In this document: positions 35,652 to 41,051 of the stretch, piece by piece
Numbering within the stretch: the stretch's first letter is position 1
Layout of the letters: every line of letters begins with the position of its first letter
Source of the DNA: Ignavibacteriaceae bacterium
Lineage (GTDB): Bacteria > Bacteroidota > Ignavibacteria > Ignavibacteriales > Ignavibacteriaceae
NCBI GenBank assembly: GCA_030584105.1
Contig: CP129491.1
Coordinates: 2,186,503-2,250,502 of the forward strand
Direction: 5' to 3'
Length of the DNA stretch: 64,000 bases
Position numbers and translations under genes: made by a program
The notes under the pieces: generated by a model
Seen by the model: only the letters and a program-made list of their open reading frames with translations
The model's database searches: none
Told to the model about the DNA's origin: nothing

Positions 35652-35911
35652 CGCTGCACTTTCACAATTCCGAAAATCTGTAATGCAATAGTAACAAAAT
35701 CTTGTATCATTTAATTTCAGTATCTTTGTAAATGCAATTTTTTGCAGCCTTTTCTGCGGGGAGGGGGCTTTTCGTTTGGGTATTATTTAACCGGAGGGGG
35801 GAAGTGGCGGGAAGTGTTGCCTTTGGTGCCGGAGGGGGCATGGGGGGAAGTGGTGCCGGGTTTTTCGGAGGGTTTTGCGAACTCACAATTTTAAAACTAA
35901 AACACGAGATT

Positions 35912-36562
35912 ATGAAAAAATATAAACTTGCCGTTTTTGATATGGACGGCACACTTTTCGACTCGATCGACACGATTTACAACGCTGCTATTGACACTTT
36001 CGAGAAATTAGGGATGAAAAATGTTGAGTTCCCAAGGGATAAATTCTCTGCAAAAATTGGGGGGCACTTTGCTGATATTTTCGAGGAGTTTGGGATAGAA
36101 GTACCTGATGTTGAGCACTACATCGATGTTTACAAAGATATCTATTTCAACCACATCGACGATACCAAGTTCTACCCGGGAATACCTGAGTTGCTGACTG
36201 ACCTTAAAAATTCGGGGGCGCAACTTGCGCTGCTTACAACAAAAAACCAGTTCCAAACCGAAAGAATTGCCGATAAGTTCGGGCTGCACGAGTGGTTTGG
36301 CTATTTGATGGGGCGGAAACAGGGCGTGAAAATTAAACCCGACCCCGAGCCGCTTGAGATAATAATTGACCACTTTGCCACTGCCAAAGCTGACACGGTA
36401 ATGATTGGTGATTCAGAGTTCGATATCGGTTGCGGGCACAACGCCGGCGTTGATACCATAGCCGCCGGATACGGCTACAGAAACCGCGAGTTTCTGCTTC
36501 GGCTTAAGCCAACCTTCTTCGCAGCTGATGTGAGTGAACTTCGCCGCCTGTTGTTGGGGTAG
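35912..36562 (+). CDS. HAD-IA family phosphatase (phosphoglycolate phosphatase-like)
   Basis: Start moved to ATG 35912, because the upstream part of the ORF is G-rich read-through. FDMDGTL motif I, LLTTKN motif II, and K..P.....GDSEFD motifs III/IV. Confidence 0.75.
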   Translation: MKKYKLAVFDMDGTLFDSIDTIYNAAIDTFEKLGMKNVEFPRDKFSAKIGGHFADIFEEFGIEVPDVEHYIDVYKDIYFNHIDDTKFYPGIPELLTDLKNSGAQLALLTTKNQFQTERIADKFGLHEWFGYLMGRKQGVKIKPDPEPLEIIIDHFATAKADTVMIGDSEFDIGCGHNAGVDTIAAGYGYRNREFLLRLKPTFFAADVSELRRLLLG

Positions 36563-37237: not shown

Positions 37238-37348
37238 ATGTCACAAGAAGAAAAAAAGGATAATTCATCCATTTTTGCGTTAGTTATGTTTAGTGTTCTT
37301 GGGCTTGGAGTTTTAGCACTCTTGCTGAAAGTTATTATCGGATTCTAA
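37238..37348 (+). CDS. 36-aa single-TM micro-protein (below the ORF-track size cutoff)
   Basis: MSQEEKKDNSSIFALVMFSVLGLGVLALLLKVIIGF, stop TAA at 37346. Confidence 0.4.
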   Translation: MSQEEKKDNSSIFALVMFSVLGLGVLALLLKVIIGF

Positions 37349-37361
37349 ACAGAGGTATTGC

Positions 37362-37487
37362 ATGAGTACCATTGCGCTCATTACAATGATCACTGCCTGG
37401 ACTGTGATAATCTCCCTGCTTTCATACTTCCTTTCGAAAGCAATGAGAACACAAAAAAAACCTCAACCGGAAGAGGAGGAAAGTTAA
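37362..37487 (+). CDS. 41-aa single-TM micro-protein (MetS-like small-subunit appearance)
   Basis: MSTIALITMITAWTVIISLLSYFLSKAMRTQKKPQPEEEES. It starts 13 nt after the previous stop and is followed directly by a strong terminator. Confidence 0.45.
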   Translation: MSTIALITMITAWTVIISLLSYFLSKAMRTQKKPQPEEEES

Positions 37488-37495
37488 TATGTGTT

Positions 37496-37527
37496 AAGCC
37501 CGGGTTTTTTATCAGCCCGGGCTTTTT
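37496..37527 (+). terminator. intrinsic terminator
   Basis: AAGCCCGGG (37496-37504) pairs with CCCGGGCTT (37515-37523), followed by TTTTT. Confidence 0.75.
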
Positions 37528-37669
37528 AATTTTTATCTTTTCCAACCGAAAATTTTCAGGAAGTGTCGGTGATTAAGGTTTTATAAGTAATTATTAGGGT
37601 ACCGATTGAAAATAACCCCCATTTTCCGCATATTGCAAACCGATTTTTTAAAATTTGCACACCGGAAAA

Positions 37670-38581
37670 ATGACGAATCTACACACCGAAAAACAAACAG
37701 GGGAAAAAACCACCAAAACCCCCGAAAAGCAAACAGGAAGAACAGCAACCATAATCGGAATCGGTCTGATTGGCGGATCACTTGCGCTTGACCTTAAAGA
37801 TTCCGGCTTCTGCAGCCATATTACAGGAGTGGAGGCAAACCCAGAACACGCCGCCGAAGCGAAAAAGCTCGGTTTGGTGGATGAAATTCTGCCCCTTAAA
37901 GATGCAGTTAAAAAATCGGAGCTGGTTATAATCGCTGTGCCGGTGGACGCTACCATCCCGGTGCTCAAAGCTGTGCTCGATGAAACTGAAAACCAAATAA
38001 TCACCGATGTAGGCTCAACCAAAGAGAAAATTGCAAAATCGGTGAAAGGGCACCCGAGGCGGGGCAGATTTGTTCCCTCGCACCCGATTTGGGGGACGGA
38101 GTTCAGCGGTCCCTCGGCGGCGGTGCGCGGCGGATTCAGTGGAAATGTTACCGTAATCTGCGATAAAAACGAGTGCGACCCCGACTCCCTCGCCGGAATT
38201 GAAGCTATGTACGACGCTATCGGCATGAAGAAAATCTATATGGATTCCGTCAGTCACGATGTGCACGCAGCCTATGTAAGTCACATTTCCCACGCCACTT
38301 CATTTTCGCTGGCGCTTTCAGTGCTCGAAAAGGAAAAGGAAGTGGATACGATCTTTCAGCTTGCGGGCGCGGGTTTCGAAAGCACAGTGAGACTGGCAAA
38401 AAGTAACCCGGAAACCTGGGTGCCGATCTTCATGGAGAACCGGGAAAACCTGCTGGATGTGCTGGAAGAACAAATTGAACGGCTGCTGGAAATGAAAGAA
38501 TGCCTGAGGCATAACGATACCAAACGGCTGAAATCACTTATGAAAAAAGCGAACGAAATTAAAAAAGTGCTGAAAAAGTGA
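37670..38581 (+). CDS. tyrA: prephenate dehydrogenase
   Basis: IIGIGLIGGSLALDL NAD motif, SHPIWGTE and SHISHATSF. ATG 37670 is preferred over TTG 37655. The N-terminal 25 aa are a low-complexity T/K/E/Q extension. Confidence 0.8.
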   Translation: MTNLHTEKQTGEKTTKTPEKQTGRTATIIGIGLIGGSLALDLKDSGFCSHITGVEANPEHAAEAKKLGLVDEILPLKDAVKKSELVIIAVPVDATIPVLKAVLDETENQIITDVGSTKEKIAKSVKGHPRRGRFVPSHPIWGTEFSGPSAAVRGGFSGNVTVICDKNECDPDSLAGIEAMYDAIGMKKIYMDSVSHDVHAAYVSHISHATSFSLALSVLEKEKEVDTIFQLAGAGFESTVRLAKSNPETWVPIFMENRENLLDVLEEQIERLLEMKECLRHNDTKRLKSLMKKANEIKKVLKK

Positions 38582-38654
38582 TTTTTTTAACCAAAAAATT
38601 AAAAAAAGGCGACAATTCCGCAAAAAATATCTTGTTTTGAATTAATCTATCACC

Positions 38655-38662
38655 TATATTTG
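38655..38662 (+). promoter_or_regulatory. candidate Bacteroidetes-type -7 box (TAnnTTTG)
   Basis: TATATTTG lies 7 nt before the leader-peptide ATG, and a TTTG element lies about 19 nt upstream. This would imply a leaderless or very short 5' UTR. Confidence 0.3.
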
Positions 38663-38668
38663 TACCCT

Positions 38669-38743
38669 ATGAACACGAAAAAAGCCACAAACTGCTACTT
38701 TTACTTTTACTGGTACTTTACCGGTCACGGGTGGCTGTTGTAG
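38669..38743 (+). promoter_or_regulatory. aromatic-amino-acid leader peptide ORF (24 codons) of a transcription attenuator
   Basis: ATG...TAG encodes MNTKKATNCYFYFYWYFTGHGWLL, with 8 consecutive Tyr/Phe/Trp codons. CGGGTGG (38728-38734) is complementary to CCACCCG (38778-38784), which overlaps the terminator 5' arm. Confidence 0.75.
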
Positions 38744-38779
38744 AATCGTGTCGTTTAAGATTAGAGATTTTAAGATACC

Positions 38780-38806
38780 ACCCGGCAAATTGAGCCGGGT
38801 TTTTTG
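38780..38806 (+). terminator. attenuator terminator upstream of DAHP synthase/chorismate mutase
   Basis: ACCCGGC-AAATTGA-GCCGGGT hairpin followed by TTTTTGTTTT. Confidence 0.75.
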
Positions 38807-38863
38807 TTTTAAACTAACTTTTTGACTAACATTAACAAACAGAAACACAAACAGACAAGCACA

Positions 38864-39916
38864 ATGGTACAGTTATTACAGAAAAAGCCCCTGATTATTT
38901 CGGGCCCTTGCAGTGCAGAAACTGAAGAACAAGTTATTGAAACAGCCACTCAACTGGCAAACACCGGCTTCGTGGATATTATGAGAGCCGGTATCTGGAA
39001 GCCCAGAACCCGTCCCGGCACATTCGAGGGCGTGGGAACCAAAGGGCTGCCGTGGTTGCAGCAGGCAAGAAAGATAACCGGCATTCCGCTTGCTGTCGAA
39101 GTGGCTACGAGCAAACAGGTGGAGGATGCACTTCACTTTGATGTTGATTTCCTCTGGATCGGTGCCCGCTCTGTTGTTAACCCGATGAGCGTCCAGGAGA
39201 TTGCAAACGCCCTGAAGGGAACAAAAGTGCCCGTTTTCATCAAAAACCCAATGAATCCCGATATCGAACTTTGGAGCGGCGCTGTCGAAAGAATTGCCAA
39301 CGCAGGCGTTGAAAATATCGGGCTGATTCACAGAGGCTTCAGCACATACGGGCATTTTGAGTACAGAAATGCTCCCATCTGGCACCTCGCTATCGAAATG
39401 AAAAGGCGCTATGCCGAGCTTAAAATGATCTGCGACCCTTCACACATCGCCGGCAGACGCGACCTCCTGAAAGCCGTGGCGCAGAAAGCGATCGACCTCG
39501 ATTTTGACGGGCTGATGATCGAAGTGCATAACGACCCTGACCATGCGTGGAGCGATGCAAAACAGCAAATTACCTCCTCGGCGCTTGTCGAAATGTTCGG
39601 GCAGTTAGTCTGGAGAAAAAGCGAAGTAAATCCCGAAGACGGGACGCAAATTGAGCAGTTCAGAAGCGAAATTGACCAAATTGACGACGAGTTGATGCAG
39701 CTTCTTTCGCAGCGGATGGAACTTTCGGCTAAAATTGGCGCCATTAAAAAAGAGCACAACATGACCATCCTGAGACCCGGCAGATGGAACGAAGTTTTCG
39801 AAAAAGGGATGAGGCTCGGCAAAAGACTGGGCTTAAGCCACGAGTTCCTCACCGGTTTCCTTGAAGCCGTTCACATGGAAAGCATCAACCACCAAAACCG
39901 CGTGATGAATGCGTGA
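38864..39916 (+). CDS. bifunctional DAHP synthase (type I-beta) / AroQ chorismate mutase
   Basis: LIISGPCSAE, GIWKPRTRPGTFEG and CDPSHIAGRRDL mark the DAHPS part. The C-terminal IDQIDDELMQLLSQRMELSAKIGAIK marks chorismate mutase. ATG 38864 is preferred over TTG 38822. Confidence 0.85.
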   Translation: MVQLLQKKPLIISGPCSAETEEQVIETATQLANTGFVDIMRAGIWKPRTRPGTFEGVGTKGLPWLQQARKITGIPLAVEVATSKQVEDALHFDVDFLWIGARSVVNPMSVQEIANALKGTKVPVFIKNPMNPDIELWSGAVERIANAGVENIGLIHRGFSTYGHFEYRNAPIWHLAIEMKRRYAELKMICDPSHIAGRRDLLKAVAQKAIDLDFDGLMIEVHNDPDHAWSDAKQQITSSALVEMFGQLVWRKSEVNPEDGTQIEQFRSEIDQIDDELMQLLSQRMELSAKIGAIKKEHNMTILRPGRWNEVFEKGMRLGKRLGLSHEFLTGFLEAVHMESINHQNRVMNA

Positions 39917-40052: not shown

Positions 40053-41051
40053 TTACCGGCTTAACAATTCAATTAAGCTGCCCGTCCCAATCAGGTGGGC
40101 GGTGCCGACAACGATAAGATATTTTTTTGGAGCGGAAGCCGCAAGTTCTTCAATTTTCTGAGCCCATTTTTTGTTTCTGTCCAAAAGGAAGATGCGATTA
40201 AACTGATTATTTTGCGTCATCGGGTCATCGTCCAGAACCTTGCCAAACTCCGAGATGTTCCCGCTTTGGAATGCGGATAAAATATCGTCCAAATCCGAGG
40301 CTAACGAGTCGATTCTGTCAAAAATTGAAAGCGCCATTTCAAACTGCGTGTCATAATCCAGACTGTCGAACAGGCTGATTTGGAACTCGACCGTCTCGAA
40401 ACCGCCGGTAGGTTTATTGAATTTCTGCGCATAATCATAAACCTTGTACTCAGTGCCGGGTTCCGCCGCCACTTCCTGTTTCATAGCAGCCACCGACGCA
40501 GCAGAAAACGCACCGAAAATCGGTTTATAATGCTTCATCACGCTCCAAGCCAACCCTGCCTTTTTGAACCTTTCTTTCAGAATTTTAACCTTATCCGGCT
40601 CATAAATATCCTTTAGGGATTTGCCGTCCGGAAGCCTCATCAGCGGCAAAATCCTGAAAGTAAGTTGTGGGTCGGTCATATCCTTCATATCCACTTCAAA
40701 AAAAATTTCATCCGCCCACTCAATCAAACTTTTCACAGTATCGGAAAGCTCCATCCCCTTTGCAACATGAATGCTCCCCATAATCTGAAATGTCGCCGCC
40801 CCCTTTTTCACCGTAAACAAATAATCGGAAACTTTTGCGCTATCCCCCGGCTGTTGCGCCGCAATTTCCTCTTTTGATGCGTGTGTGCTGCCACCCGGCA
40901 GTTGTGCGATATTTTGCAGGGTGTCCAGATAATACGAGCCTTGCGCTTTTTCCCCATGCAGTTGCGCAGTAATTTGACCGGCTTGTCCCTGCGCGCTACA
41001 CGGAAGGCACAACAACAACAACAAAAGCGTAAATAATCTAAAAGTTTTCAT
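40053..41051 (-). CDS. TraB/GumN family protein, secreted
   Basis: Signal peptide MKTFRLFTLLLLLLCLPCSAQ, plus FQIMGSIHV, FLLDRNKKWAQKIEEL and LIVVGTAHLIG. Confidence 0.75.
   Translation of the reverse strand: MKTFRLFTLLLLLLCLPCSAQGQAGQITAQLHGEKAQGSYYLDTLQNIAQLPGGSTHASKEEIAAQQPGDSAKVSDYLFTVKKGAATFQIMGSIHVAKGMELSDTVKSLIEWADEIFFEVDMKDMTDPQLTFRILPLMRLPDGKSLKDIYEPDKVKILKERFKKAGLAWSVMKHYKPIFGAFSAASVAAMKQEVAAEPGTEYKVYDYAQKFNKPTGGFETVEFQISLFDSLDYDTQFEMALSIFDRIDSLASDLDDILSAFQSGNISEFGKVLDDDPMTQNNQFNRIFLLDRNKKWAQKIEELAASAPKKYLIVVGTAHLIGTGSLIELLSR

Follow-up and report, generated by a model that had tools for sequence, protein, structure and literature searches.

The enterobacterial pheL-pheA and trpL-trpE systems follow a four-region logic, in which a run of cognate codons in a short open reading frame (ORF) reads tRNA charging and the transcript then folds into a 1:2 pairing that blocks the antiterminator, the 2:3 antiterminator itself, or a 3:4 terminator followed by a U-tract. 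In E. coli, the common-pathway enzyme of aromatic amino-acid synthesis is controlled by the TyrR and TrpR repressors and not by attenuation (PMC11802643). In Corynebacterium glutamicum, the mixed aromatic leader of aroR-aroF (Phe-Tyr-Phe) attenuates a gene for 3-deoxy-D-arabino-heptulosonate 7-phosphate (DAHP) synthase; stalling raises expression, and the system responds to phenylalanine limitation (PMC11802643, PMC4046766), in work credited to Neshat et al. 2014 as cited in PMC11802643. Here we describe a 64,000-nt stretch of an Ignavibacteriaceae genome (contig CP129491.1, positions 2,186,503 to 2,250,502), called the window throughout, in which a short ORF with a run of aromatic codons and a terminator precede the gene of a bifunctional DAHP synthase/chorismate mutase (DAHPS/CM). 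We conclude, with a probability of roughly 0.85, that this element is a ribosome-mediated (leader-peptide) transcription attenuator controlling the DAHPS/CM gene.

The Ignavibacteriales leader shares its regional logic and cognate codon run with pheL and trpL. It differs from them in the position of region 2, which falls within the leader ORF immediately ahead of the stop codon; in reading three amino acids; in lacking a Shine-Dalgarno sequence and, probably, a 5' untranslated region (UTR); and in having the common-pathway enzyme as its target. The aroR-aroF system resembles it in having a mixed aromatic leader before a DAHP synthase gene, but it belongs to Actinomycetota, has three regulatory codons with none for Trp, and its enzyme is not a DAHPS-CM fusion; an independent origin is likely, and the likeness would be one of functional analogy. 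In the ilvBNC operons of C. diphtheriae and C. glutamicum, the 5' end of the transcript is the leader start codon and a hairpin attenuator follows (PMC5784534, PMC11857589), but there the start was mapped experimentally, whereas here it is deduced from promoter geometry, and both the sensed amino acids and the phylum differ. Within the superphylum, amino-acid operons of Flavobacterium psychrophilum have been suggested to use leader-peptide attenuation (PMC9723704), which is also hinted at in Bacteroides thetaiotaomicron by small ORFs in long 5' UTRs (PMC7366714). These cases share the promoter type and the lack of a Shine-Dalgarno sequence with our locus, but no aromatic or DAHPS leader is described in detail in those reports. 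Attenuators in the Bacteroidetes/Chlorobi group were also reportedly predicted in the comparative genomics of Vitreschak et al. (2004) and of Lopatovskaya et al. (2010).

No Rfam family reached its gathering score anywhere in the window. Trp_leader (RF00513) scored 23.5 bits against a gathering score of 41, mainly over the terminator, and a permissive scan of 38550-38900 returned sub-threshold, terminator-driven matches only. Judged by its sequence, the element would constitute a family of its own outside Rfam, restricted to the Ignavibacteriales clade.

Aromatic codons and competing RNA helices

Translation of 38669-38743 yields the 24-codon ORF with eight aromatic codons that a preliminary description, made from the letters of the window, had placed there (Table 1). 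The run comprises 4 Tyr, 3 Phe and 1 Trp codons without interruption and is the longest aromatic run in all six frames of the window; the runner-up has 5 codons, and aromatic residues account for 10.5% of codons in the window's long ORFs. None of 200 shuffles reached a run of 8 (maximum 7, in 2 shuffles). A codon-usage check found nothing unusual in the leader's TTT and TAC codons compared with the genome, and no Shine-Dalgarno sequence precedes the ORF. The Pfam domains of the gene starting at ATG 38864 agree with the DAHP synthase/chorismate mutase proposed earlier, and such a target fits a run dominated by Phe and Tyr with a single Trp codon, in line with the earlier suggestion that mixed Tyr, Phe and Trp codons suit a common-pathway enzyme.

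The terminator scan and the sequence agree on a hairpin with a U-tract that starts 36 nt downstream of the leader ORF and has G-C at 6 of its 7 stem pairs. Region 2 sits within the leader ORF, with 5 nt between it and the stop codon. Its segment CGGGTGG (38728-38734) is exactly complementary to CCACCCG (38778-38784), five bases of which are shared with the 5' arm of the terminator. Both helices had been recognised in the preliminary description, and that part of its account of alternative structures stands; it had overlooked region 1, the anti-antiterminator, and an extension of the antiterminator. The latter appears in the minimum-free-energy (MFE) fold of the full leader, where CGGGUGG:CCACCCG is joined by a pairing of CCGG (38721-38724) with CCGG (38795-38798) in the 3' arm of the terminator. 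Antiterminator and terminator are mutually exclusive, and the folding check proposed earlier recovers both states: the antiterminator is in the MFE fold, and the RNAalifold consensus of nine sequences holds the terminator, the 1:2 helix (columns 26-34:80-88) and the hairpin CUGGU/ACCGG that this helix encloses. The duplex between the leader and the terminator 5' arm has an energy of -16.4 kcal/mol against -10.9 +/- 2.3 in dinucleotide shuffles, 25 of 1000 of which were equally good. In a transcript ending just before region 3, folding places region 2 already in a pairing with region 1; since region 2 is sequestered before region 3 emerges, an untranslated leader should terminate.

The effect of a ribosome was modelled codon by codon in six orthologues by forcing unpaired the nucleotides from -18 to +11 around the first base of the A-site codon. 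With codons 10-15 of the window's leader in the A site, the probability of the antiterminator was 0.88-0.98, and from codon 18 to the stop codon that of the terminator was 1.0. Across the six orthologues, the antiterminator had a probability of 0.83-1.0 with the A site on early aromatic codons, and the terminator one of about 1.0 from at least three codons past the run to the last sense codon. In most orthologues the switch point fell on the final one to three codons of the run, and in the clade of L082 and L202 at about mid-run. With no ribosome at all, the equilibrium favoured the terminator in four orthologues. In the folding model, the logic of the pheL/trpL type that had been proposed for this locus is reproduced by conserved elements in six orthologues, including the release of CGGGTGG by a ribosome stalled on the aromatic codons. 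The companion claim, on the masking of region 2 by a ribosome that has reached the stop codon, holds in the window and fails in the clade of L001-L003, where a 1-nt indel puts the stop 12 nt further downstream. In that clade the folding model has region 2 covered by translation through codons 18-28 and not by a ribosome parked at the stop.

Table 1. Features of the proposed attenuator locus, in window coordinates
Feature	Position	Strand	Remarks
Prephenate dehydrogenase gene (tyrA), directly upstream	37670..38581	+	Pfam PDH_N and PDH_C
-33-like TTG of the leader promoter	38632..38634	+	exactly 20 nt upstream of the -7 box
TATATTTG, Bacteroidota-type sigma-A -7 box TAnnTTTG	38655..38662	+	invariant in all orthologues; alternatively a -10 element TATATT
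Leader-peptide ORF, 24 codons plus stop	38669..38743	+	translates to MNTKKATNCYFYFYWYFTGHGWLL, then stop
Region 1 (anti-antiterminator, 5' strand), AAAAGCCAC, codons K-K-A-T	38680..38688	+	pairs with GUGGCU of region 2; RNAalifold helix
Alternative region 1, window-specific, GCUACUU, codons C9-Y10-F11	38694..38700	+	pairs with GGGUGGC; MFE fold of transcript ending before region 3
Regulatory codons 10-17, Y F Y F Y W Y F	38696..38719	+	TAC TTT TAC TTT TAC TGG TAC TTT
Small hairpin ACUGGUA-CUU-UACCGGU, enclosed by 1:2 helix	38709..38725	+	possible pause hairpin
Region 2: CCGG 38721-38724 plus CGGGUGGC 38728-38735	38721..38735	+	strand common to 1:2 and 2:3 pairings
Region 3, CCACCCG	38778..38784	+	pairs with CGGGUGG; overlaps terminator 5' arm
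Terminator hairpin (3:4), ACCCGGC-AAATTGA-GCCGGGT	38780..38800	+	7-bp stem, 7-nt loop, -13.2 kcal/mol
Region 4, GCCGGGU, then U-tract	38794..38800	+	terminator 3' arm
Terminator U-tract TTTTTGTTTT	38801..38810	+	T-run invariant in all orthologues
Bifunctional DAHP synthase (type I-beta) with C-terminal chorismate mutase	38864..39916	+	350 amino acids; Pfam DAHP_synth_1 E 3.7e-37, CM_2 E 4.4e-23

Conservation and substitution pattern

The element lies directly upstream of the orthologous DAHPS/CM gene in all retrievable Ignavibacteriales relatives, and the comparison suggested in the preliminary description shows both the aromatic run and the alternative pairings to be conserved among them. A pattern scan that took one genome for each species detected the element in eight, all Ignavibacteriales or Ignavibacteriaceae, and a metagenome scan gave 2 further loci; the resulting set of 8 species-level genomes plus metagenome contigs contains 11 distinct sequences, which form 4 clades. 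The DAHPS/CM genes most similar to that of the window (84-85% amino-acid identity) come from metagenome-assembled genomes (MAGs) labelled Chlorobiota, Ignavibacteriaceae and, in one older record, 'Bacteroidetes', in agreement with the earlier attribution of the window to the Fibrobacteres-Chlorobi-Bacteroidetes (FCB) group. The next tier, at about 69% identity, is that of Chitinophagaceae. An aromatic leader directly upstream was seen at 0 of 77 DAHPS/CM loci of Chitinophagaceae and other Bacteroidota; recurrent 'MMRIAG'-like mini-ORFs at Bacteroidota loci were rejected as out-of-frame readings of the end of the upstream gene. On the unclassified metagenome contig L215, where the protein has 70% identity, the gene sits within an operon that runs prephenate dehydratase, aminotransferase, prephenate dehydrogenase, DAHPS/CM, 3-dehydroquinate synthase, 5-enolpyruvylshikimate-3-phosphate synthase and chorismate synthase. 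The structure-only pattern GGGTGG...CACCCGG N9 CCGGGTTTTT matched four Ignavibacteria genomes already in the set plus three others; the matches in Mycobacterium, Robiginitomaculum and an actinomycete were taken as chance.

The window shares its clade and the leader MNTKKATNCYFYFYWYFTGHGWLL with L216. The leader reads MMTKKATL(S/I)PFYFYWFYFTGPGG(F/Y)CR(V/I/L)V in the clade of L001, L002, L003 and L201, MIN(M/L)KKATNTSFYFYWFYFTGRGWLL in that of L082, L202 and L208, and MKMKNPTIATVNFYWFYFTGRGWLL in that of L209, L210, L212, L213 and L214, whose DAHPS/CM is 73% identical. The ORF stays in frame in all orthologues, with insertion or deletion of whole codons within the aromatic run, which is YFYFYWYF in the window and FYFYWFYF or FYWFYF elsewhere (8, 8, 8 and 6 codons across the clades); in every sequence, exactly 50 nt separate the promoter box from the run. 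The N-terminus of the peptide varies except for the residues encoded by region 1 (MNTKKATNC, MMTKKATLSP, MKMKNPTIATVN). Between the window and the L001 clade, the 1-nt indel lies just before CGGGTGG and shifts the frame, so that the peptides end in TGHGWLL and TGPGGFCRVV respectively; despite this, the nucleotides of ACCGG..CGGGTGG are invariant. With the peptide end and the run varying and these nucleotides fixed, the pattern fits a constraint on the RNA pairings and the regulatory codons, and it does not fit one on a functional small protein.

In the terminator, 98.4% of cells in the alignment are paired and 2 pairs show compensatory double changes (G-C to A-U; A-U to C-G). All 11 pairs of the antiterminator form in 9 of 9 sequences, among them the 7 of 7 pairs of region 3 CCACCCG, where three positions vary one-sidedly and still pair. 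The four one-sided changes of the antiterminator keep standard pairs (U-A to U-G, G-C to G-U twice, C-G to U-G), and the changes of regions 3 and 4 inside the terminator stem all keep or restore the terminator pair as well. A to G at column 129, for example, turns the terminator pair into G-U and the antiterminator pair into U-G; C to U at column 144 is offset in the terminator by G to A, and the antiterminator pair becomes G-U. The 1:2 helix includes a pair (30-84 in the RNAalifold alignment) seen as G-C, G-U and A-U. Pairing energies are similar across orthologues, at -12 to -17 kcal/mol for 1:2, -13 to -20 for 2:3 and -11 to -13 for 3:4. The small hairpin (columns 56-60:69-73) pairs in all sequences and is invariant, and therefore offers no covariation evidence. 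Taken as a whole, the substitutions are consistent with the proposed switch, though statistically not deep.

Predicted promoter and start of the leader transcript

The motif TTG-N20-TATATTTG is invariant in 11 of 11 distinct orthologous sequences, and its flanking bases vary. The preliminary description had located the box correctly and put it 7 nt before the ATG; the actual spacing is 6 nt in the window and 3 nt in the clade of L082 and L202. In Flavobacterium, the TAnnTTTG box spans -12 to -5 relative to the transcription start (PMC9723704), a geometry that predicts a start at about 38667, 2 nt before the AUG (a 2-nt 5' UTR). Reading the box as a -10 element TATATT with a 17-nt spacer after TTGTTT yields the same estimate. 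L202 and L208 have CUG in place of the second in-frame AUG, which leaves only the first AUG as start codon. By promoter geometry, the leader transcript is thus probably leaderless or nearly so.

Such transcripts are a minority in Bacteroidota, where 5' UTRs shorter than 10 nt make up 3.7% in B. thetaiotaomicron (PMC7366714) and leaderless mRNAs 5.5% in F. psychrophilum (PMC9723704). The preliminary description regarded a leaderless start as unusual for ribosome-mediated attenuation; the Corynebacterium ilvB leader provides a precedent (PMC5784534, PMC11857589). A bolder proposal is that a truly leaderless AUG, at the RNA 5' end and with neither Shine-Dalgarno sequence nor 5' UTR, is combined here with attenuation for the first time in the FCB group, in a single leader that integrates Tyr, Phe and Trp charging for DAHPS-CM and whose terminated RNA of about 140 nt might also be a small RNA (sRNA); we hold it tentatively, at somewhat less than even odds. 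A search for further box-plus-ATG mini-ORFs found no second attenuator in the window. One box, before 55667, overlaps the apparent stop codon of the upstream gene and for this reason is not clearly a promoter.

Proposed mechanism, alternatives and wider occurrence

In the proposed mechanism, transcription would begin on the leader AUG or no more than about 2 nt away from it, as promoter geometry suggests, and a ribosome would read the 24-codon leader while RNA polymerase makes the next ~100 nt. An ample supply of charged tRNA-Tyr and tRNA-Phe, and to a smaller extent of charged tRNA-Trp, would let the ribosome pass the eight aromatic codons and, on nearing the stop, cover region 2 (CCGG...CGGGUGGC); the 3:4 terminator would then form and the transcript end at about 38806-38810. 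When an aromatic aminoacyl-tRNA is scarce, stalling on the early aromatic codons would cover region 1 (38680-38700) and expose region 2, which could bind region 3 and part of region 4 as the antiterminator and allow read-through into the gene. A leader that is not translated would adopt the 1:2 pairing and the terminator, making the off state the default.

An ORF with its own promoter box and terminator would make a complete small transcription unit, and the conserved aromatic core and KKAT motif could be taken for those of a free-standing small-protein gene, followed by a DAHPS/CM gene that is separately promoted and unregulated. This explanation is very improbable given that the indel changes the C-terminal third of the peptide wholly while the underlying nucleotides do not change, that the N-terminus varies too, and that the conserved nucleotides are exactly those in the three competing helices; moreover, no promoter-like box lies between the terminator and 38864, and the ORF is always linked to DAHPS/CM. 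The RNA switch itself is indifferent to the cause of stalling, and the same switch could serve a nascent aromatic peptide with an arrest activity like that of TnaC or SecM, which might sense a free amino acid instead of tRNA charging. The aromatic order is strongly conserved (FYFYW in three clades), as such a peptide would demand, but the run differs between clades in both length and order, the residues preceding it are unconserved, and no feature specific to arrest peptides was found. In trpL, pheL and hisL, runs of cognate codons before a gene of the cognate pathway mark the sensing of tRNA charging, and this signature at the present locus makes peptide arrest very unlikely.

The terminator might, on the other hand, merely end or insulate tyrA transcription, or the short RNA might be a trans-acting sRNA, with the ORF and the complementary segments incidental. 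No terminator is found between tyrA and the leader promoter, and RNAs derived from attenuators can work in trans, as rnTrpL is reported to do (PMC6614838). We give this very little credence, as a conserved promoter separates tyrA from the ORF, the aromatic run is beyond chance, and the alternative pairings are conserved with compatible substitutions; a function in trans, besides, would supplement attenuation rather than replace it.

Against the attenuator, in turn, stand several observations. Covariation support is limited, with only four independent clades and much of the element invariant; the antiterminator shows 0 double compensatory changes, and shuffling provides no informative control for it. 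With its shifted stop, L002 can still form the antiterminator when a ribosome sits right on the stop codon, and in L002 and L003 the ribosome-free equilibrium favours the antiterminator, so that default termination there would need co-transcriptional formation of the 1:2 helix, that is, a contribution of folding kinetics. TAnnTTTG is not over-represented across the window (57 matches against 64 expected), so that the promoter type is an assumption based on the FCB relationship and on conservation. Finally, whereas the elements, their mutual exclusivity, their conservation and the pattern of substitutions come out of the sequences and their computed folds, we infer the transcription start, the translation of the leader and its response to amino acids.

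Beyond the Ignavibacteriales, a genome scan with FYFYW[YF][FY]F gave, among the matches listed, leader-like hits only in Ignavibacteriaceae, Saprospiraceae and Leptospirales; most of the matches listed were set aside as chance in AT-rich genomes or as lying inside long ORFs. Four Saprospiraceae genomes (L101:821-1040, L108, L112, L134) carry a leader M(I/M/L)PNR..(Y)FYFYWFYFY A.HKGA, ending in a stop, in which as many as 10 aromatic codons follow one another. A terminator (GCTCCGCC AAAA CGGGGCTTTTTT) comes next, ahead of genes for prephenate dehydratase and for an aminotransferase, in what appears to be an analogous attenuator of the mixed-aromatic kind in Bacteroidota. A Leptospirales MAG (L148:1468-1660) has the leader MKIANAIKRNFYFYWFYFYKSRS, with its stop, and a terminator upstream of a type I-beta DAHP synthase, with a sigma-70-like promoter (TTGACA), a normal 5' UTR and an RNA folding z of -3.1. 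The FYFYW core that these leaders have in common with the Ignavibacteriales one was imposed by the search pattern, and since their RNA parts are unlike the Ignavibacteriales element, they look analogous and not homologous to it. By sequence, then, candidate leaders with mixed Phe, Tyr and Trp codons recur on aromatic-pathway genes across phyla. In three Spiroplasma genomes (L085, L120, L186), a near-identical stretch RNSYCQK(T/S)FFYFYWFYFTSNVFSNII has no Met start and is probably a conserved non-coding or other-frame sequence, not a leader.

Around the element, the order tyrA-leader-DAHPS/CM is retained in relatives, and the DAHPS/CM gene is monocistronic, since the next gene (40053-41051) is on the opposite strand. 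In the sister clade, the annotated DAHPS/CM start of proteins P0005-P0019 (378 amino acids; L209:2501-2581) is placed 27 codons too far upstream, on an ATG within the 3' arm of the terminator hairpin (MFGFFVLN...). MKQLLKK, at about 2582, corresponds to the start in the window, and the 351-amino-acid versions appear correctly annotated. The spacer between tyrA and the promoter contains short repeats in L209:2120-2330 and L210:2110-2250 (CACGGAT; TAATACCTAATAC; CTTTGCG, repeated) that the window does not have. Further upstream in the window (35721-35912), a TATCTTTG box stands 3 nt before ATG 35732. From this ATG, a G-rich stretch of 60 codons with recurring GGAGGGGG / GGGAAGTGG motifs leads in frame to the conserved start of a HAD-family hydrolase (~35913, MKKYKLAVFDMDG). 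This stretch matches no Rfam family and has ordinary folding energy (z = -0.63); an N-terminal extension, a 5' leader and a repeat are all conceivable. At 37238-37530, two adjacent tiny ORFs encode hydrophobic peptides of 36 (MSQEEKKDNSSIFALVMFSVLGLGVLALLLKVIIGF) and 41 amino acids (MSTIALITMITAWTVIISLLSYFLSKAMRTQKKPQPEEEES), and after them comes a palindromic terminator-like sequence, AAGCCCGGGTTTTTTATCAGCCCGGGCTTTTT, that could act in both directions.

A full-text literature search found no paper linking Ignavibacteria with an attenuator. The mechanism is a textbook one and the conceptual gain is consequently modest; what is new is the lineage and the sequence family, and the element is modestly unusual in its probable leaderless start, its region 2 within the ORF, its reading of three amino acids and its DAHPS-CM target. 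Regulation in Ignavibacteriota is almost unstudied, and the element adds a defined, conserved family of cis-regulatory RNA that is new to Rfam, as well as correcting the annotation of the 378-amino-acid proteins of the sister clade. It offers a compact natural test of attenuation with no Shine-Dalgarno sequence and probably no 5' UTR, and a possible sensor part for aromatic amino-acid supply in FCB hosts. If our reading is right, entry into the shikimate pathway in this Ignavibacteriales lineage would be governed by classical attenuation.

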